Counted from the first letter of the stretch, positions 3,376 to 64,000 are shown. The stretch is DNA of 64,000 nt from Cenarchaeum sp. (GCA_965242695.1 CBDESU010000001.1:1984001-2048000); one strand, 5' to 3'. Notes: a model not told the origin generated them from the letters alone. Program-made: numbers and translations.

Positions 3376-4531
3376 TGCCCATACCTACGGACTATGCAGA
3401 TGCGTTGATATGCGAGGAGATTGCAAGAACCCGCGCCATGATGGGGCTTGTCCCTTACCCACTCAAGATGGCGCCCTTGAGGGGCTGGCAGAGAGGTGCA
3501 CATACGTCTTAAAGGAGGGCGCCTCTACACTCGAGTCACTGCGCACGGATGTCCGTTCCGGCGGCGATGTCGGAGCCGTCATGGAGGGCGTGAGCTTGTG
3601 CATTACGAGCATCCTAGACATTGAAGAGTACGGCCTGCCCCCGCTACAGTGCCAGACCAATGAAATGGCCCTGCTCAACGTGGTCCTACGCAGACTGCAT
3701 GACGAAATGTCGCTCCCCTTTCCGCGCCCGACGGCCTGCTGCATCTCCAACCAGCACTACGCTTCGCACATTCCGACCAACACCATATACACGCCCATAG
3801 GCGAATCGAGGTCCATTCAACACTTTCCGCACCTATACCATGAGCTCGGTCACTACCTGTTCTATGCCCTCGAAGATCCTAGGCTGATGCCGTTGCGCGA
3901 GGGGTTTAAGCAGGCTGCAGCCACGGTCAATGCGCACTACACAGGCCTAGAGCAGGACGGGACAGAGACACACAATCGTCCGCACACAAAGGGCTTCGCA
4001 ACGCAGGTGCGCGCGCAGTGGACAGAGTGGCTCATAGAGGCCCTGTGCGACCTGCTCGGGGTGTTCGGCGGGGGGCCGGCCAGCGCATGGGCGTACCTGC
4101 ACATGGTGGCCAAGAGGCGCTTTCCCGTGTACGGGCTGGGTGCGCTTGTGCCGCAGTCGCACCCTCCCAGCGACGCAAGAATGGCGATGATGTGCGCAGG
4201 GCTGAGGCTGTCCGGATTCGTCAAGGATGCGGACGTGATATGGGCCAGGTGGAAGGATGTGGTGGACACGGTCGACGGATCGCCGGACGCAATGTACCGG
4301 CATGTGGCTCCAGAGGGCCTCCTGCGCGACATAGTGTGCATCATCTACGAGTCGCTCGGCAAGACGAGCGTGGTCATGTACGATCCCGGCTCGCGCGGGA
4401 GGGAAGGCTCAAGCATGCGCACACTGCTCAACGATGCGTGGGACGTCTTTTGGCGGTCGCGGGAGGGCGAGTACCAGGAATGGGAGGCGGCCGAACTGGA
4501 CAGGCTAGTCCGAATGGCGGCGCAGACGTAG
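3375..4531 (+). pseudogene. HExxH zinc metallopeptidase-like protein (gluzincin/M48-like), apparently frameshifted near 3462-3466
   Basis: HLYHELGHY, IEALCD and SHPP..R lie in the 3332-4531 frame. The coupled ATG at 3375 reads MPIPTDYADALICEEIARTRAMMGLVPYPL in another frame and joins DGALEGLAERC if one base is added at CTC AAG AT. Confidence 0.6.
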
Positions 4532-4576
4532 CCGGCAGATCCGGCTGCGGCTGCGGCTGCAGGGCCGTGCCGGCCG

Positions 4577-5941
4577 CTACTGCCCTCCGGACATCTCGAC
4601 GCCGGCGCCAATCCGGCGCAGTTCGTCAAAGTACGACGGGTACGATATCGAGACGCTGCCGGCATCGCGCACGACGGCGCCGGATGCGCCGGATGCGAGC
4701 CCCGCAAGCGACAGGGCCATGGCCACGCGGTGGTCCGACACGCCCCTGCCGCCGTCGGCGCTAAAGTCGTAGCGCGGCATGCCGGCTACGGGCGGCCTGC
4801 CGTGCACGGTCATCTCGTCGCGCCCCGACTCGGTGCGCACGCCGTGCCGGCCGAGCTCCCTCTCGATCACGGCTATGCGATCGGTCTCCTTTGTGCGGAT
4901 CTGCGGCATGCCGTGCAGCCGGGTCGAGCCCGAGGCGTGCGCGCCAAGGACGGCCATTACCGGAAACAGGTCCGGCGTGGCCGACAGGTCTGCCTCGATC
5001 CCCTCCAGTGCGAACGGGCCTCGCACGCGCAGATCCGCGCCGCCGGTGCGCTCCTCTATCGCAGCGCCCATCCGGCGCAGCAGGCCGACGATCGCGCGGT
5101 CACCCTGCCGGTCGCCCGGGTCGAGGCCGCGGACGGTCACGTCGGACTCGGCCAGGCAGGCGGCGGCTAGAAAGAACGCCGCCTGCGAGTAGTCGCCCGG
5201 CACCTCGTACACGGCCGGCGGGGACGGCCTCTGCCCGCTCTCCACAAAAAACGTGCCGGCCGCATAGTCGGCGTCCACCCGCATGCCGAACGCCCCGAGC
5301 GCCTCGACGGTCATCTCCACGTACGGCCTCGAGACTAGCGGCCCGCGCACCTCGACCGCAGTGTCGGAAGAGGCCAGGCCGGCGGCGATCAGCAGGGCCG
5401 AGACGTGCTGCGAGCTCTCCCCGGCCTTGACGGCCGCCGTCCCGCCTGCGATCCCGCCGCCTGCCATGATCGGCGCGTACACCTCGGGCCTGCCGCGGGC
5501 ATCATCGCGCCGCTCCCCGTCTGCCGCGGCCCCGAGCGAGCGGAGGGCCCCGACAAGCGCCCCCGTCGGCCGGGTCCGCAGCGACGCGTCCCCCGTGACG
5601 GTCACGCGGCCCGTCGACAGGGCGGCCATGGCGACGACGATGCGCAGGGCCGTTCCCGAGTTGCCCACGCTTACAGTGCACGACGCCGACGGCTTCCCGG
5701 CCCCGAGGCCGCGCACGCGAAAGGAGCGGGAACCGGCATCGACGCGCGCGCCGAGCGCGCGGCAGGCTCCCGCCATGGCGCGGTTTGCGTCAGAGTCAGA
5801 CGCGTTTGCAATCTCGACATCCCCGCCGTACAGCGTCGCGGCAGCCAGCGCCCTGTGCGTGTACGACTTTGACCCCGGGGCCGTGACGATTCCGCGCAGG
5901 CCGTCCGCCGGCGGGCGGACCAGCGCATCCGTGCGGATCAC
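4577..5941 (-). CDS. aroA: 3-phosphoshikimate 1-carboxyvinyltransferase (EPSP synthase)
   Basis: PGSKSYTHR, GNSGTALR, GDASLRTRP, SSQHVSALL, VPGDYS, KETDRI, DHRVAM; GTG start at 5941 overlaps the upstream TGA. Confidence 0.95.
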   Translation of the reverse strand: MIRTDALVRPPADGLRGIVTAPGSKSYTHRALAAATLYGGDVEIANASDSDANRAMAGACRALGARVDAGSRSFRVRGLGAGKPSASCTVSVGNSGTALRIVVAMAALSTGRVTVTGDASLRTRPTGALVGALRSLGAAADGERRDDARGRPEVYAPIMAGGGIAGGTAAVKAGESSQHVSALLIAAGLASSDTAVEVRGPLVSRPYVEMTVEALGAFGMRVDADYAAGTFFVESGQRPSPPAVYEVPGDYSQAAFFLAAACLAESDVTVRGLDPGDRQGDRAIVGLLRRMGAAIEERTGGADLRVRGPFALEGIEADLSATPDLFPVMAVLGAHASGSTRLHGMPQIRTKETDRIAVIERELGRHGVRTESGRDEMTVHGRPPVAGMPRYDFSADGGRGVSDHRVAMALSLAGLASGASGAVVRDAGSVSISYPSYFDELRRIGAGVEMSGGQ

Positions 5942-7559: not shown

Positions 7560-8404
7560 TCAGCCCAGCGTAGTCTGTACCTTTCGCTCCTCTACAATCT
7601 CTTGGCATATCGCCTGGAATTTTTGGAGTGTGGTAGTAGGTATTCGGCCTTCTAGACTTTTGTCCTTGATCGCCTTGAGTTCATCGCGTTCCAAAACGGT
7701 TCTAAGCGTCTTTTTCACTCTATTGCGAAGATCGTTACGGTGTTTTCTCCCATGTACTTGTACTTCGGATGTACAGCCTTTAGAAGATCAGTCAACGTCT
7801 CATGCTTGGTAAGGTCAGAGAGTGACTTTGGATGGCTTTTACGAACCCAAGCCAGTAGCCCAACCATGACGTGCAGAAGTATGAGAGGATCGTCGTCACA
7901 AGCTGAGAAAGGGTAGAACAGCATAGGTTCAAACTTGCTTGAAAGACTGCTTTGCTTGCACAGACTTTGGTTAAGATGGTCATGCCCAAAATCGCCCCTG
8001 CCTTCGACAAATTTCCTTCCAAACAAGACAAACGGTAGATCGGTGTGGTTCCTTAGAGCGCCATAGTTGGAATCGTTCGCAACGTAGCATGTAGACAATG
8101 TGAGGCGTGCTTTCTCTCGGACGTCAATCCAATTGAAAAGGTGCTCTGCCCTAATACTTTTGTACCTATCATCCTGGTCACGGTCTATGTTGTTCCCGCT
8201 TTTACAATCAACTACGACTGAATGCAGGAGTTTGTCGGATACGACGACGACGTCCGGTGTCACTCCATCGGTTTTTGTACTGATCTTTTGTTCCACGAGC
8301 TTGACACGGTACCCCAGTTCGTACATGACGGAGGGCCAATAGTCGACGTTGCTGCACAGGCCGATAAACTTGTTCATAAGCCTTGTGTGGGCGTTAGCGT
8401 ACAA
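7560..8404 (-). pseudogene. PD-(D/E)xK nuclease-like protein with one frameshift at ~7749-7751
   Basis: VTPDVVVVSDKLLHSVVVDCKSG; TTG start after GGTGGAG. Adding one G at ATG-GG-AGA extends the ORF to MGRKHRNDL...EERKVQTTLG*, which aligns with the paralogue at 63612-64000. Confidence 0.7.
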
Positions 8405-9518
8405 GTTGCTCCACCTGCCTGCACCTAATGAGGGTTCCAAAGCGATCCTGGAGGTTGCACAGCAGACGCATGATCGTATTGCCGCAGCTGTTCTCGGAAA
8501 GATAGACGCGCATCATATTTGCGGCGATCTCAAAGTTAATCGGATCGCCCGTATGAAGGTCGAGCCCCGCCACGCGGTAATACCCTTCATCAACCTCCGA
8601 CTTCAAGCCCCAAAGCCGAAACGGTCTAGTCGAGTCAAACAAGCGTGTTATAAAACGGTTTGTGTCCTGAAGCGGCTCTTTAAAGTCGAAGTGGAGGGGT
8701 TCGCCTCCGATCACCGTCTCGCCGTTATGACGTGACGAGCCAAGTCTGCACTCTTCAATCCCTTCAACCGTATTTGTATACAACGCTTTTGCCGAGTCGA
8801 CCAAATGGAGGTGATCTTGGACAGACGTGCCGCGCTTCACCGCAAAGTACCCCTCCTTGCCAATGTCATCATGGACATAGTCGGACAGTCTCGCCTCTTC
8901 ACCGCGCATAAGCCGAATTTTCCTATAAGCTATTGTCCCTGCCAGGTGTGGGTTTTGCATCATATGGCCCTCTATCTCCCTGGCCATGGAGCCATTGATG
9001 TTCATGTTAAGGTCGTCGACGCCGCGCGGTCGATCTTCATCGAGAAAGCCGCTCGCATATTTGACGCCGAACCCCCGAAATGTGCCGGCGCCAGACTTTT
9101 TGGCCAGGGCCTTGAGCAACGAGTCGGACAGCCACATTCTGTCTAGCGGATGTCGATCCATGTCTGTGATCGCGGTGACCGCCCGACCCGCCTCATCGGA
9201 CCGGGCAGTAGTGTGGAGCACGTGGAACCGCTTGTCGGAAACATCGGCATAGAATTCGCACACAGTGTCGCCGACATGGGTTCGCATGATCTTCATCTTG
9301 TCAATCCCCGTATCTGTCAGCTCCCAACTGGCACCATCCGACTTGCCCGACCGCGGGATGCCAGAGTCTGCCTCGACTACGTAGGCCTTCAGCTCGCGCA
9401 ACCCGTCTTGGTCATGCGGCCCGTCATCCTCATCCTGGGGCGGGCTGATCTTGTTGCCAAGATAGTCCATAAACTCTTTTCGCGTCTGGACCTTTGGAAG
9501 GGACAAATCGTGTGTCAT
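8394..9518 (-). CDS. Hypothetical protein (374 aa), partner of the downstream nuclease-like gene
   Basis: Long ORF in a lower-GC insert; GGTGAT SD-like motif before ATG; overlaps the downstream gene; C-terminal LWG...LDLHTG...CGNTIMRL...FG. Confidence 0.85.
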   Translation of the reverse strand: MTHDLSLPKVQTRKEFMDYLGNKISPPQDEDDGPHDQDGLRELKAYVVEADSGIPRSGKSDGASWELTDTGIDKMKIMRTHVGDTVCEFYADVSDKRFHVLHTTARSDEAGRAVTAITDMDRHPLDRMWLSDSLLKALAKKSGAGTFRGFGVKYASGFLDEDRPRGVDDLNMNINGSMAREIEGHMMQNPHLAGTIAYRKIRLMRGEEARLSDYVHDDIGKEGYFAVKRGTSVQDHLHLVDSAKALYTNTVEGIEECRLGSSRHNGETVIGGEPLHFDFKEPLQDTNRFITRLFDSTRPFRLWGLKSEVDEGYYRVAGLDLHTGDPINFEIAANMMRVYLSENSCGNTIMRLLCNLQDRFGTLIRCRQVEQLVR

Positions 9519-59600: not shown

Positions 59601-61678
59601 TTGCGGCCGGCGGCCGAGAGGTGTTCCGGCAGGTTGTTGTTCCACACCACGTCGTTGTCGATGGCCGTCATGTTCCGAACGTCGCTTGCAAACGCGGCCG
59701 TGTCCGGATCCTGTATCGCCGGAAAGCCCACCGAGGATACTGTACTCGTCGTCACAAACCACTCTTCGCCGGTCAGCACGGCGCGGGCGGCGGGGTCCGC
59801 GGCCGCCGCGCCCGCAAGCCCGTCCAGGTCGTTGATGAGCCCGACAAACGCGACTAGCATGGTCGCATCGTTGCCGGCGACGGCCGCCGATGCCAGCTCT
59901 ACGACGCTCGTCCAGTTGGCCATGTTGTCGGGCGCGAACCGGACGGTGGCGGCGACGTCGACGCCGCGCGAGGCGAGCGTCTCGGACAGCGTGCGGTTCA
60001 GCGACAGGCCCCACTCGTCGTCGCGCAGCAGCACGACGACCGACTCCGTTCCCCTCTCGGCCATCGTCCGCCCCATGTAGGAGGCCTGCCGGTCGGTGCT
60101 GACGGCCATGCGGAAGATGTTGTCGCCCGGTATGGAGAGCGACTCCGCCTCCGACCCCGTGCTGAACAGGACGATCCCGTTGTCCTCGGCATAGTCCGCT
60201 ATGCTTGCAAGCCTAGAGCTGAGGCTAGGCCCCACGTACACGGTCGGGCCCTTGCCGCCGTCGTGGGCGGCGGCGAGCACGGCCGAGACGTTGCGGCCCG
60301 TAATGTTGTACGCGATCAGCTTTACCAGCGACTCGTCCTCGCCCTCGTTGTAGTCTGCCGCTGCAAGCCTCAGGCCGTCGAGCGTGAGATCGTCGGGCCA
60401 GTCCTGGTAGCCTAGGGCCATGAGTGCCCCGACCCTAGTCACAGGGGTCTCGCCGGTCCCGCCCTCGGCGAGCTCGCCCGTGGTCCGGTCCGCCCTCCAG
60501 ACGGTAAAGCCGTCGGGTGCGCGCAGGTCGCCGTTCTTGTCCAGTATGATGCCGCCGATCGCGCCCGTGTAGTTTAGGGCGGCGGCCGGCAGGGCCGCTG
60601 CCACAGACGCCGCATCGGCAGAGGGGCCGCCGGCGGCCGCTATTGCGCCGCCCAGCACGAATACAGAGTCGTAGGTAGAGTACTCGTAGAACGAGAGCGG
60701 ATCGGCGCTGCTCAGGTTCGAGTCGATCGCCCGCGTAAGGCCGCTCTCGGGCACGTTCTGCTCGAGTATTGTCAGCCCGACGGCGGCCGAAAAGTCGCGG
60801 ACGGGGCCGGCCGGAAGCTGCGACGAGGCGACAAGGGCGGTAGACGGCGCAAACCAGGACGTGCCATCCAGCACGGCAGAGCCGGCCGCAGCGGCGGCCA
60901 TGTTCGGATAGCTGCTCCCGTACCCCGCAAAGAACACGCCCGTGTCTGGCTCCGTCGCGCCGCCCTCGACCTGCCGGGCAATGCCCTGCCAGTAGTCAGG
61001 ATCGGTGCTGTCGCTGAACAGCACGGTTGCCGCGACGTCGATTCCCCTCTCGGCTGCGCTTGCGTTGACGAACTCGGCAAGCTGCCTGCCCCACTCGTCG
61101 TCGCGCGCGACGACGACTAGCGAGGATATCCCGGCAGACTCCATCTCGTCGACCAGTATGGCCCCCTGCCGCTCTACGTTGATGGCCAGGCGGAATATCC
61201 TGTCCCCCTCAATGGCCAGCTGCGGCGCCTCGGACGACGGGCTGACCAGGACCGTCCTGTTGAGGACGTCCATCGACGTCGCGTTGGCGCGTATGTTGGC
61301 AAGCCCCTGGCTGGTCGTCGGCCCGACGTAGAACAGGGGGCCGGTGCCGCCGTCGTACGCCCCGACGAGCCCCGCCGGCTCGCCGCCGCGCTCGATCGTC
61401 GTGACTTCGAGCGCCAGGTCGAACCCCGCGCTCTGCTCGTTGAAGCGGTCGACGGCGTACTCTAGTACGGCCGTGCGGTTGGTGTCGTCGAACTCTTGGC
61501 CAGGCCCGCTCATGAGGGCGCCGATGGCGACGGTCGGCTCGGCAGACTGCGCGTGGGCCGCATCCAAGCCCAGGGCGGCCGCTGCCGCCACTGCCAGCAC
61601 GGCCGCTGCCGCCAAGAGCGCGGCGCTCCCGCGTGCGGCAGGCGCCGTGCCGCCGCGCCTCCATACGCTTGGCTTCAC
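56609..61678 (-). CDS. Large secreted protein with four tandem type I (LivJ-like) periplasmic-binding domains and a C-terminal beta-sandwich
   Basis: GTG 61678 after CTTATAA; signal peptide; four units each with Y(V/I/L)GP..S, FR(L/M), Y..YD, (L)D.NGD. Confidence 0.9.
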   Translation of the reverse strand: MKPSVWRRGGTAPAARGSAALLAAAAVLAVAAAAALGLDAAHAQSAEPTVAIGALMSGPGQEFDDTNRTAVLEYAVDRFNEQSAGFDLALEVTTIERGGEPAGLVGAYDGGTGPLFYVGPTTSQGLANIRANATSMDVLNRTVLVSPSSEAPQLAIEGDRIFRLAINVERQGAILVDEMESAGISSLVVVARDDEWGRQLAEFVNASAAERGIDVAATVLFSDSTDPDYWQGIARQVEGGATEPDTGVFFAGYGSSYPNMAAAAAGSAVLDGTSWFAPSTALVASSQLPAGPVRDFSAAVGLTILEQNVPESGLTRAIDSNLSSADPLSFYEYSTYDSVFVLGGAIAAAGGPSADAASVAAALPAAALNYTGAIGGIILDKNGDLRAPDGFTVWRADRTTGELAEGGTGETPVTRVGALMALGYQDWPDDLTLDGLRLAAADYNEGEDESLVKLIAYNITGRNVSAVLAAAHDGGKGPTVYVGPSLSSRLASIADYAEDNGIVLFSTGSEAESLSIPGDNIFRMAVSTDRQASYMGRTMAERGTESVVVLLRDDEWGLSLNRTLSETLASRGVDVAATVRFAPDNMANWTSVVELASAAVAGNDATMLVAFVGLINDLDGLAGAAAADPAARAVLTGEEWFVTTSTVSSVGFPAIQDPDTAAFASDVRNMTAIDNDVVWNNNLPEHLSAAGRNCGSQADAVAGNYLRAYFECNVPSTWLYEFAAYDTLFVLGKAIRSNVQAGTPNDAAGLSAAIPVAAEEHVGILGDIALNANGDLLTPDRFGIWYVRDGNWTDTGIRKFTPVVDIGVLAALGDRDYPDDLTVRAVRQAVEDYNNAEPRRVFVNLAVHNITGRDALAVLSGAHGGGVGPFIYIGPTLSSNLARVEGPANAHGVVLFSPGSEAQSLAVAGDSVFRMTISSARQGALIGNVMADAGIESAVLLVRDDEWGRDLNASIAGALEARGADVAASVRFAAGGEADWPSAVAAASSAISEASSRGDAPTVGVAFVGVENDQNSLAAAWQAANGTALTDGVQWFVTPSGISQGPRIPDDAGRAFATAAQMTGIAIDVGDGAARAALDAAVPGLSFYEYAAYDTLHVLGGALELNDAAGREHTQASVGLSIPIAAKAYEGVLGDVELDANGDLLVPDRFAVWRVVDGAWTDTGETRAAPVVEPPGAAGCGDAGTTCIVLGELYLPEADALAPRINGEVHAAYEIAVRDYNAEMAADGSPLRVRLEQVNLTFASPADGLAAAYGGGAGIVAYLGPTFSSVAAALANFTEDSRTVMVSPTSQSTSPPSHLRDDGLFRLSINDRYEADQLAIAAHREGIGTVVPVVITAYGTSYEEEVRRESETLGMAVLDTVHIPHPNQNQSGTVAEINSRVAAAAASGTDPSDIGLLVVSFSQELHDIAHYAVEYPLLRQAKWFEPGHLFPPQPIEDPETLRLAQAAQFYSISWDLPQTPKFERVHRALAAAGGGVEPQHYAYSAYDSVYLLAGAVNRSMDAGGSHTGAGVAAEMHAAAEALDGLLGGDLRLDANGDRISPNRVAIWRTAPGTGAWTDTGDRAGLDPVCGISLASGELAFGDVGAGGRSGPAMQAVRNVGTLPLDGLTIEASGWAGTDGREVLPAGATSIMIGGEGDWTPLGSPFSAEPGEGPTEAMFRLEVPATLRQADAGQAAQTVTYTASCGAPGQ

Positions 61679-61840: not shown

Positions 61841-63004
61841 ATGCGCGGGAGGACGGGACAAGCAGCACTGGCCGCAGTGGCGGCGGTTGCCGCGCTGGCG
61901 TGCGCGGCGCTGGCCGGCGGCGATGCCGAGGCGCAGGAGCCGCTGTCCATCGAGATTGCAGATCGCTACGTAAAGGGCGACACGATAGCCATATCCGGCA
62001 CGGTGCGTAGCATCGACCCCACGCTCATTCATAGCGTCACGATCATGATACGCGATCCGAGCGGCAACATCGTCGGCATAAACCAGGCAACGCCGGCCGG
62101 CGACGGCACGTACTCTACCTCGATAGTGGCCGACGGCCCCAGGTGGAAGGACCCCGGCGCCTACGAGGTGCGCGTCCAGTACTCGGCCCAGAGGGCCAGC
62201 ACGACGTTTGAGTTTTTCCCGGGCGACGGCACGGCGCCGGCGCCGGATCCAGCCCCCCCGGCCCCCGTGGCGCCCGAGCCGGACCCGACTCCGGCGCCTC
62301 CGCCGCCGGCCCCCGACCCGACGCCGGCCCCGCCAGCCCCCGTGGCGCCGGCCCCCATAGTGCCCGACCCAGCGCCCCCGCCGCCCCCACCCCCCCCTCC
62401 GCCTCCAGCGCAGCCCGATCTTGAGTGCGGCCCCGGAACCGTAGAGCAGGACGGGCAGTGCGTGGCAGAAGAGCCAGAAGAGCCGGCCGCGCCCACGTGC
62501 CCCGCCGGCCAGACGCTCGAGGACGGCAGGTGCGTCGACGTAAAGCCCGACCTGAACTGCGGCCCCGGAACCGTAGAGCAGGACGGGCAGTGCGTGGCGG
62601 TGCCCGATACGTCTTCCGGCAGCTGCCTCATAGCTACGGCAGCGCACGGAACAGAGCTTGCCCCGCAGGTCCAGCTGCTGCGCGAGCTGCGCGACGGGAC
62701 TGTAATGACGACGGCATCCGGCGCATCGTTCATGTCGGGGTTCAACGCGGCGTACTATTCGTTCGCCCCGGCGGTAGCAGACATGGAGCGCGAGATCCCC
62801 GCCGTGCGCGACGCAGTCCGCCTGCTCATCACCCCGATGCTCGCATCCCTTTCCGTAATGTCGCTGGCCGAGGGCGGCTCGGACGCGCAGGTGCTCGCGC
62901 TTGGGTCAATAGTCATTGCCCTCAACGCCGGCCTCTATATTGCGGCGCCGGCGGTTGCCGGAACGATCCTCTCCAGAAGGCTGGCGAGGCGCTGGCGCCG
63001 GTAG
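61841..63004 (+). CDS. Secreted CFI-box-CTERM protein with Ig-like domain, Pro-rich stalk and Cys repeats
   Basis: Signal peptide; CGPGTVEQDGQCV twice (41-bp identical DNA at 62426-62466 and 62558-62598); SCLIATAAHGTELAPQVQLLRELRD; C-terminal TM. Confidence 0.9.
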   Translation: MRGRTGQAALAAVAAVAALACAALAGGDAEAQEPLSIEIADRYVKGDTIAISGTVRSIDPTLIHSVTIMIRDPSGNIVGINQATPAGDGTYSTSIVADGPRWKDPGAYEVRVQYSAQRASTTFEFFPGDGTAPAPDPAPPAPVAPEPDPTPAPPPPAPDPTPAPPAPVAPAPIVPDPAPPPPPPPPPPPAQPDLECGPGTVEQDGQCVAEEPEEPAAPTCPAGQTLEDGRCVDVKPDLNCGPGTVEQDGQCVAVPDTSSGSCLIATAAHGTELAPQVQLLRELRDGTVMTTASGASFMSGFNAAYYSFAPAVADMEREIPAVRDAVRLLITPMLASLSVMSLAEGGSDAQVLALGSIVIALNAGLYIAAPAVAGTILSRRLARRWRR

Positions 63005-63045
63005 CGGCGCGGCGGCGTTCTGCACGGGCAATGTCGCCCTGACCT

Positions 63046-63356
63046 GTAGGCGCAACCAACAACTTGGTAGGCCATCGTTGGAACGGGGCCGAACCGGTAC
63101 GTAGAGTTGTGCGAGGCAGGCGCAGCCAACAACCCGGCAGGCTGCTACAAATCTGCGCGTTTTGCGTACCGCATACGAGAACCGACGCAAGTGCAGCCAA
63201 CAACCCGGCAGGCCGTCGCTGGGCGGCATAGGCAGTGACAACCTCGACGGGGCCACAACAGGCGCAGCCAACAACCCGGCAGGCCTTACCGGTCGAAGGT
63301 TGTCGAGGCGCGTGGCCAGGACGCGGTCGTAGGAGCAGCCAACAACTCGGCAGGCC
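63046..63356. repeat. CRISPR-like interspaced repeat array: 5 degenerate 28-bp repeats, 4 spacers of 42-43 bp, no cas genes in window
   Basis: Consensus GCAGGCGCAGCCAACAACCCGGCAGGCC at 63046, 63116, 63187, 63258 and 63329 (periods 70, 71, 71, 71). Confidence 0.85.
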
Positions 63357-63611
63357 GCTACCGGGCCACTTGCCGGCAGCATCCGGCGCAAGCTGCTGGT
63401 ATACGACAGGCGCCTGCGTAGGATGCAACGTTCATGCCGCGGTGCGGCGCGGCGCGGCGCGGCAAGCCTTTGCAAGTTGGCCAATGCTACTCCCGCGTCG
63501 TTCCCGCAGGCGCTGCCACTACCAGCCGTGCGGGCCCTTCTAGGTCAATTGTCGTTTCTGCGTCGTCGTCCCCGCAGGACTGCGCCGCGGGCATCCGGCA
63601 ACAGCGCGCCA

Positions 63612-64000
63612 CTAGGGCGCATCCACCACACTGCCCCGCTGTGTCTCCAAGCCCATCCTCCTCTTGCAACGATCGGTGAACGCCTGCGCAGTGCTGGGGT
63701 CAAAGCCGCCACGAAGCAATTTTTTGTAGAGTGCCCCGAGATCGTCGTCCTCCTCCAGCATCTCGGCGAACCACGCTGTGGCCTTGCGGACTAGCAACTC
63801 TGCATGCCGCGCCCCCATTTCATCATAGAATATATGGACTGCCTTGATCACATCTCTCATGCCAGACTCGGTGGTAAAGTCAGCCGGCTTGCCTGCGCCC
63901 GCCTTTGTTGCACAAGACACAATACCTTCGAGGATAAAGGGCAACGCAACCGACGGAGGATCGTCGGGGGAAAATGGGTATAGAGACAAGGGTTCCCGCG
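63612..64000 (-). CDS. C-terminal part of a paralogue of the 7560-8404 nuclease-like protein (5' end outside window)
   Basis: REPLSLYPFSPDD...KAVHIFYDEMGARH aligns with FEPMLFYPFSACDD...KAVHPKYKYMGRKH; frame open to the window edge. Confidence 0.8.
   Translation of the reverse strand, partial: REPLSLYPFSPDDPPSVALPFILEGIVSCATKAGAGKPADFTTESGMRDVIKAVHIFYDEMGARHAELLVRKATAWFAEMLEEDDDLGALYKKLLRGGFDPSTAQAFTDRCKRRMGLETQRGSVVDAP

Follow-up and report, generated by a model that had tools for sequence, protein, structure and literature searches.

Five interspaced direct repeats beside an MJECL33/MJECL32-like gene pair in Cenarchaeum sp.: a candidate orphan CRISPR-type array

The genome of Cenarchaeum sp. 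considered here (GCA_965242695.1) comprises 3.89 Mb in two contigs, designated C1 and C2, with a GC content of 67.5%. The stretch of DNA that we analyzed, hereafter the window, is 64,000 nucleotides long (CBDESU010000001.1; C1:1984001-2048000). At positions 63048-63356 of the window, between a surface-protein gene and a gene predicted to encode a PD-(D/E)xK-type nuclease, there are five direct repeats and four non-coding intervals. What kind of element this array may be is the subject of this report. Because contigs from other sequencing runs span the region, the array is not an assembly artefact.

The repeat search returned a single family, with copies starting at 63045, 63115, 63186, 63257 and 63328, i.e., at a spacing of 70/71/71/71 bp. 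When the five copies are read in register, the well-conserved block consists of 26 nt, with a mean pairwise identity of 0.87. This block is preceded by a weakly conserved G-Y dinucleotide, which extends the repeat to 28 nt; the 10 nt to the right of the block are at background identity (0.31 vs a null of 0.27, p=0.22). The intervals are therefore 44, 45, 45 and 45 nt long with the 26-nt repeat, or 42, 43, 43 and 43 nt with the 28-nt repeat, the latter being the architecture that an initial annotation of the window had described, and which both the search and the in-register reading reproduce. Within the core, a direct GCAG(C/G)C ... GCAGGC pair, 15 nt apart, can be read from the sequence. The repeats are assigned to the minus strand. 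Repeat 1 (63048-63073) is the most degenerate, with four transitions from the consensus, all in a putative 5-bp stem. Repeat 2 (63118-63143) carries one change, repeat 3 (63189-63214) carries two, at the repeat edge, repeat 4 (63260-63285) is identical to the consensus, and repeat 5 (63331-63356) carries two changes. The intervals, or spacers, are located at 63074-63117 (spacer 1, 44 nt), 63144-63188 (spacer 2, 45 nt, GC 0.56), 63215-63259 (spacer 3, 45 nt) and 63286-63330 (spacer 4, 45 nt).

The alternation of conserved blocks and variable intervals is not that of a decayed plain tandem repeat, which we rejected: the summed in-register identity of the intervals is 70, vs a shuffle mean of 76, and in a purine/pyrimidine code it is 147 vs 141 (p=0.21), with no excess. 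The spacers are thus not diverged copies of one unit; had they been, this would, by the initial annotation's own list, have spoken against its reading. A coding repeat was likewise rejected, in agreement with that annotation, because the period cannot be divided by 3 and no codon-phase GC bias is seen across the array, which is therefore non-coding. Att repeats derived from a tRNA were rejected as well, since the genome contains no other copy of the 26-mer. Tandem Repeats Finder did not call the array region, an outcome to be expected when repeats are interspaced and not tandem.

Throughout the genome, the 21-nt core of the repeat is found, with at most 2 mismatches, in five forward positions and in none on the reverse strand; a reversed-pattern control also gives none, and a profile built from the five repeats detects no sixth copy. 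A genome-wide scan for arrays of conserved blocks with at least 25 variable columns retrieved, besides true CRISPR (clustered regularly interspaced short palindromic repeats), this locus and one locus with a period of 51. The GC content of the array, 0.646, is close to that of the genome (0.675), i.e., it is host-like, unlike that of the neighboring gene cassette.

Between the array and the nuclease gene there is one further candidate, a possible, strongly decayed repeat at 63506-63536. Its local score of 22 was equalled in 3 of 1000 shuffles, and its ungapped profile score lies in the top 0.044% of genome positions, with about 230 positions tested. This weak signal hints at a formerly longer array, towards the nuclease gene. 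In-register repeats at ~63408 and ~63576, suspected by eye, were not significant in the profile scan. The same gap includes a (CGCGG)5 microsatellite at 63438-63463, and next to the cassette at window ~7-9 kb, on its downstream side, there is a comparable run of (CGCCG)n. Finally, the end of repeat 5 and its flank (63349-63389) match C2:193440-193483 in minus orientation, in 37 of 44 nt; this is a non-coding, GC-rich stretch ~4 kb upstream of another copy of the cassette.

On the minus strand, each repeat is predicted to be able to form GCCGG-GUUG-UUGGC, a 5-bp hairpin with a GUUG loop. All 25 of the 25 stem cells pair, and the substitutions in repeats 1 and 5 keep the pairing (in one case both partners are exchanged, from G-C to A-U, and in two cases a one-sided change turns G.U into A-U); on the plus strand, the same helix would hold A.C mismatches in most copies. 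This evidence was used solely to prefer a strand. That is, if the array were transcribed, the minus strand would be the likelier sense, the same direction as both cassette genes.

To the left of the array, the surface-protein gene (61842-63004, plus strand) is convergent with the nuclease gene. As its start we took the ATG that comes first behind a TATA-like box, although an open reading frame of 502 amino acids, the longest one, begins at 61496. The stop codon (63002-63004) lies 44 nt before repeat 1, and the gene marks the left edge of a ~3-kb block that is absent from the sister species. The ~350 nt of its 3' part at 62618-62965 are a multi-copy domain, presumably a C-terminal anchor common to many surface proteins: all 40 scored matches (of 372 first-look candidates in this genome) show 68-82% nucleotide identity, the domain also occurs many times, in the same range of identity, in each large genome of the genus, and one inverted copy is found beside the cassette at window ~7-9 kb.

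To the right of the array, the window includes the 3' part of an MJECL32-like gene (63612-64000, minus strand), whose stop codon (63612-63614) is ~255 nt from the end of the last repeat, so that the array sits between two convergent gene ends. The gene encodes 297 amino acids and, as had been supposed from its missing N-terminus, runs 505 nt past the window; in the coordinates of locus L006, where window position 63612 is 3612, it occupies 3612-4505. Upstream, outside the window, is an MJECL33-like partner gene of 417 amino acids (L006 4456-5709, minus strand). The two genes form an islet of 51-60% GC in a background of 65-73% GC. Further along (L006 7576-8043; C1:2051576-2052043), a perfect ~39-nt tandem repeat of ~10 copies, with 80% GC and several frames read through, sits in a small membrane-protein gene beside the ribosomal L1/P0/P1 cluster.

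The 297-residue protein is, as the initial annotation had stated, a paralogue of the product of a gene elsewhere in the window (~7748-8440), with 47% identity over 231 amino acids. E50, P62, D63 and K80 are invariant among 12 sequences, and D78 nearly so; with its catalytic E, D and D-x-K residues in place, the protein can be assigned by sequence to the PD-(D/E)xK superfamily. Its structural model (pLDDT 87) gives restriction-endonuclease-like proteins, namely XisH, SdaI and the R2 endonuclease domain, as top Foldseek rows, at weak E-values of 0.01-0.05. The model of the 417-residue protein (pLDDT 81) gives middling matches in Foldseek and VIA, the best with a Z of 7.0, among them CENP-L (Z 6.8), RdgC (Z 6.6) and KA1-type domains, over 184-191 residues for RdgC and CENP-L and in a range that is common for the tool; from such matches we assigned this protein neither fold nor function. 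For both proteins, searches of local Pfam, PADLOC and NCBIfam libraries came back empty, the Pfam copy being one that does not include the PF25924 and PF27326 models. In precomputed homologue clusters, all 62 clusters for the 417-residue protein carry PF25924, and 12 of the 14 for the 297-residue protein carry PF27326; a protein atlas names these families MJECL33 and MJECL32, respectively. The MJECL name derives from genes of an extrachromosomal element, a plasmid. Profiles of both proteins gave nothing below E 0.3 against PDB sequences, viral contigs scanned with the MJECL33 alignment yielded no relative, and a literature search on MJECL32 and MJECL33 found nothing.

The MJECL33/MJECL32 pair occurs in four copies in this genome (window 7748-9506; C1:1540895-1542821; C2:197301-199208; and the copy beside the array, C1:2047615-2049709), and its gene order is kept in these four and in nine cassettes of relatives, namely two matches in genome G344 and eight matches, amounting to seven loci, in genome G236. 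Each copy is a sharp ~2-kb islet of low GC (43-60%) in a genome of ~68% GC; the paralogues are 41-52% identical, and several G236 copies contain in-frame stops. Judged by these sequence features, the pair looks like a mobile or selfish, defence-type cassette.

We examined the downstream DNA of 12 other cassettes, three in this genome, two in G344 and seven in G236, and found no comparable interspaced repeat array in any of them (0 of 12). The caveat of the initial annotation, that the other cassettes it had seen have no such array, is thus borne out more widely, and homologous genes without arrays, which it had listed among the outcomes unfavorable to it, are what the examined loci contain. 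The closest available orthologous cassette, in G344, has 65% amino-acid identity for the upstream gene and is at another locus (L035, G344:C2:1579336-1587583, positions 3792-5797), again with no array; its nuclease gene is split by a ~2-kb insertion, such that residues 1-197 and 192-280 are encoded 2 kb apart, and an oppositely oriented gene follows. Three other cassettes among the 12 are followed by irregular GC-rich triplets. In G236, an ordinary 49/56-nt tandem repeat of 5-6 copies lies ~400 nt downstream of a cassette paralogue (L039, G236:C1:3028905-3036951, positions 4272-4531); its whole unit is conserved, and it is neither interspaced nor related in sequence to the array.

The locus is polymorphic for presence and absence. 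DNA identical or near-identical to it is found in 12 sequencing-run rows from 6 studies, several of which are labelled sponge metagenome. Relative to the syntenic region of G344, homology extends to L006 ~2937, a point just short of the surface-protein gene's end and still within its final codons, and begins again at ~6013; in between, 3,076 bp, comprising the array, the 255-nt gap, both genes and their upstream region, replace 544 unrelated bp in G344. In run X6, a second, more abundant strain joins L006 3010 to 4454, exactly at the end of the 417-codon gene, through 418 other letters; this strain thus either lacks the array and the nuclease gene or has something else in their place, and its 417-codon gene is ~89% identical. 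The array and the cassette are one ~3-kb indel block that varies between strains and species.

Where the array is present, it is static. Contigs from independent sponge samples have the spacers in common. Those of runs X1, over the whole 3.5 kb, and X5, over L006 2600-4370, do not differ from the reference at all. The X7 contig (L006 2602-6100) differs by 51 substitutions and 11 gap positions, i.e., it represents a strain that is ~1.5% diverged. In this strain there is no indel inside the array, the single listed indel between the surface-protein gene and the cassette being a 5-nt change that shortens the (CGCGG)n microsatellite by one unit; spacer number, spacing and, among the 40 substitution rows listed of the 195 in the comparison of runs, essentially spacer sequence are the same. 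No spacer gain or loss is seen in the X1, X5 and X7 contigs. The lack of strain variation that the initial annotation had counted among the outcomes adverse to it is therefore observed, across the contigs of these runs.

The genome has a single CRISPR-Cas locus, ~950 kb from the array (C1:1072616-1096390), with ~330 copies of a 35-nt repeat that has a strong 8-bp palindrome and ATTGAAGC at its 3' end. Its spacers (n=326) are 32-41 nt long, with a mean of 37 and a GC content of 0.668, and the median period of the locus is 72. The flanking genes, at C1:~1062700-1072400 and 1096696-1098880, encode Cas2, a Cas4-Cas1 fusion, Cas3, GSU0053 and GSU0054, a set that we take to be type I-G (formerly I-U). 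We found one Cas1 and one Cas2 in the genome, with no second of either, and no match to the Cas6_C and RAMP families. No cas gene adjoins the array either, consistent with the initial annotation: the neighbors are the MJECL32/MJECL33-like pair, with no cas, Pfam, PADLOC or NCBIfam match. The repeat of the array is not related to that of the native locus; the two match best, locally, in 10 of 11 nt, mostly in the flank. G236 has the same native repeat family, and G344 and G236 have one Cas1 each. None of the 326 native spacers matches the array or the four cassettes. Two of them have perfect matches of 35 and 38 nt in the same genome (C2:698844-698878 and C1:975632-975669) and, on this evidence, would be self-targets or mark integrated elements.

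To account for these observations, we tentatively place first the explanation that the five repeats are an orphan, currently static CRISPR-type array, with a repeat unseen elsewhere. CRISPR arrays consist of several near-identical direct repeats of about 23-47 nt, and this is what the five repeats are. Conserved 26-mers beside intervals of random identity require either an insertion mechanism or selection on the 26-mer; the CRISPR-type explanation ranks first because insertion between duplicated repeats fits the anatomy best. An end repeat that is the most degenerate also fits CRISPR anatomy, and we count in favor of this explanation that the architecture is nearly unique in the genome outside true CRISPR. 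In this scheme, the array would have been built by spacer insertion in an earlier context, namely a CRISPR-Cas system that was foreign or has since been lost, or else mobile DNA with which the block arrived. The cognate machinery for adaptation and processing would no longer be in the genome, and the array would presently be inactive. Its position at the edge of a ~3-kb variable block carrying one copy of the MJECL33/MJECL32 cassette would then be an incidental juxtaposition, not a functional one.

Several observations weigh against this explanation. The repeat does not have the usual GAAA(C/G)-type end, as read from the sequence, and neither an AT-rich leader nor a clear archaeal promoter is seen between the nuclease gene and the array. 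The decayed repeat possibly present at 63506-63536, on the opposite side from degenerate repeat 1, would make the decay less clearly one-sided than a CRISPR trailer should show. Eight of the nine repeat substitutions are GC-to-AT transitions, covariation in the hairpin is weak (82 of 500 shuffles equal it), and the whole array folds no better than shuffles (z of -0.06 for the minus strand and -1.6 for the plus strand). The spacers, moreover, are not fully independent, which is unusual for viral spacers. The last 25 nt at the 3' end of spacer 1 resemble the 5' part of spacer 4, out of register, in 21 of 25 positions with three 1-nt gaps, a score reached by 0 of 1000 shuffles. Spacer 3, at residues 22-37, repeats 15-16 nt of spacer 4 in inverted orientation (p=0.004), which creates a ~15-bp inverted repeat around repeat 4 that both minimum-free-energy folds use. 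Through these matches, a second motif besides the 26-mer, of 16-25 nt, is common to three of the four intervals, at varying positions and orientations.

Searches of sequence collections count on the same side. No array of the repeat core turned up, and single matches were at chance level, in 400 genomes of the class (13 genomes have one 2-mismatch match each), in the GTDB species-representative genomes (6 single core matches, in unrelated bacteria), in JGI metagenome contigs (4 single matches) or in IMG/VR viral contigs (3 single matches); these scans demand near-exact identity, and diverged relatives of the repeat would escape them. In Rfam, including its CRISPR-DR families, the repeat has no match at E<=1, CRISPR-DR or otherwise credible. 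Nor did the spacers match viral or mobile-element sequences, as the initial annotation had proposed to look for. No protospacer was found in the genome itself, beyond chance 13-21-mers, in the four other genomes of the genus and 220 of the family, or in phage records; plasmid records gave two chance matches of 33-35 nt alone, and one exact 22-mer per spacer found nothing in IMG/VR. The viruses of this host are poorly sampled. A literature search for orphan CRISPR in Thaumarchaeota or sponges returned general genomics papers only.

Nearly as likely as the orphan array, although we would still call it doubtful in itself, is a functional array of another kind, in which the 26-mer is selected as a DNA site that a protein binds (in the manner of iterons or a centromere, or as a platform for regulation or silencing) or as an RNA hairpin motif, while the 45-nt intervals drift. 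Selection would provide what is needed for the contrast of 26-mers at 0.87 identity with intervals at background if there were no insertion mechanism. The fixed period of 71, the direct GCAG(C/G)C ... GCAGGC pair, the motif common to three intervals, the same spacers across strains, and a repeat with neither relatives nor leader would all suit such an array. So would a cassette family named after plasmid genes, and an upstream 417-residue protein with weak RdgC- and CENP-L-like fold matches, within the common range though these are. However, the 12 other cassettes have no such sites, no partition ATPase or Rep gene is adjacent (the neighbors have no library match), and the array is between convergent gene ends rather than upstream of a promoter. 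A period of 71 bp does not correspond to whole turns of the helix and greatly exceeds the spacing known from iterons. The element is also dispensable, because a co-occurring strain and the sister species do without it. Of the three readings offered by the initial annotation, a decayed orphan CRISPR and an array of binding sites thus survive.

It is less probable, and on the whole improbable, that the array is a neutral leftover, i.e., an old local duplication or insertion-scar array that resembles CRISPR by chance. What CRISPR finders report as a small array without cas genes is often a false positive, and the confinement of this one to a single lineage, its dispensability between strains, its host-like GC content and a decay of repeats that may affect both ends are as a leftover would have them. 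Yet decay cannot leave 26 nt at 0.87 identity beside 45 random nt unless the intervals differed from the beginning, and such an architecture is almost absent elsewhere in this repeat-rich genome.

We give only a slim chance to the array being a functional element of a novel sort, made of RNA or DNA and independent of Cas, that arrived with the cassette, e.g., a recruited guide or decoy array, or a natural neo-CRISPR at its birth. Were this so, the 418 bases in the sister strain could carry a differently loaded version of the array. Slimmer still is the case for neo-CRISPR in the strict sense, that is, off-target integration of spacers at a non-CRISPR site by the resident type I-G-like Cas4-Cas1/Cas2. 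The period of 70-71 nearly equals the native median of 72, the adaptation module and very large native array imply that adaptation has been active, and a repeat unique to this genome is what a duplicated random target would yield. But repeats of 26-28 nt and spacers of 42-45 nt are not the lengths of the native locus, with its 35-nt repeat and 32-41-nt spacers; in addition, identity falls to background in the 10 nt that follow the block, the repeat does not significantly resemble the native one, and no spacer turnover is seen between strains. Off-target integration that spawns new arrays has been reported in E. coli (Nivala et al. 2018), as far as the description in bioRxiv 10.1101/148544 goes.

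The remaining idea, that the adjacent MJECL33/MJECL32 pair obtains guide or antitoxin RNAs from the array, was put forward by the initial annotation and is the one we most disfavor: the array does lie ~255 nt downstream of the pair, on the strand where the hairpin pairs in all five copies, next to a nuclease that keeps its catalytic E, D and D-x-K residues and with which it was gained or lost together in one strain comparison, but the 12 other cassettes of the genus, including the closest available orthologue, have no array, the widespread family (62 and 14 homologues) comes with no note of arrays, no promoter or processing signal is evident, and the array has host-like GC whereas all cassettes are low-GC islets.

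If the orphan-array explanation is right, the locus is one more cas-less CRISPR relic, with a repeat unseen elsewhere, and this sponge-symbiont archaeon would have encountered either another type of CRISPR or a mobile element that carries repeats. The locus is real and its repeat new; the general kind, i.e., a cas-less, static, lineage-specific CRISPR-like array, is already known. The finding would matter more if the repeats were selected or transcribed. It also carries a caution, in that a CRISPR-looking array near a nuclease-family gene is no evidence of a guide system here, because the genus has a dozen further copies of this gene pair, none of them with an array.

Among known systems, the ToxI repeats of type III toxin-antitoxin loci follow one another directly, are nearly identical, and precede the gene of an endoribonuclease. 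The common element is the presence of short repeats near a gene of a nuclease family, but here they are interspaced with unrelated intervals and are downstream of a PD-(D/E)xK-type gene, so that the array does not belong to this class. Plasmid centromere or iteron arrays beside a two-gene operon, e.g., sopABC of F, resemble this locus in the succession of a two-gene operon and a directly repeated array; in contrast to them, there is no ParA-type ATPase here, the intervals are unconserved, the period is much longer than that of iterons, and the other operon copies are array-less. The native type I-G-like locus has a similar period (72 vs 70-71) and, in its own spacers, a GC content near the genome mean, but its repeat is unrelated and longer (35 vs 26-28 nt), its spacers are shorter (32-41 vs 42-45 nt), and it is ~950 kb away. 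Neo-CRISPR arrays, so far as that preprint describes those of Nivala et al. 2018, share with this array a novel repeat confined to one genome and an active-looking adaptation module in that genome, and are set apart from it by repeat and spacer lengths that here differ from the products of the resident integrase. Orphan CRISPR arrays, short relic arrays among them, differ from it in that here the repeat matches no array in the collections searched and no Rfam CRISPR-DR model, no protospacer was found, neither a leader nor spacer turnover is seen, and three of four spacers share a motif. What the array has in common with them is a CRISPR-typical repeat length, spacers of uniform size that are dissimilar in register, a degenerate terminal repeat, a small hairpin, and a location with no adjacent cas genes.

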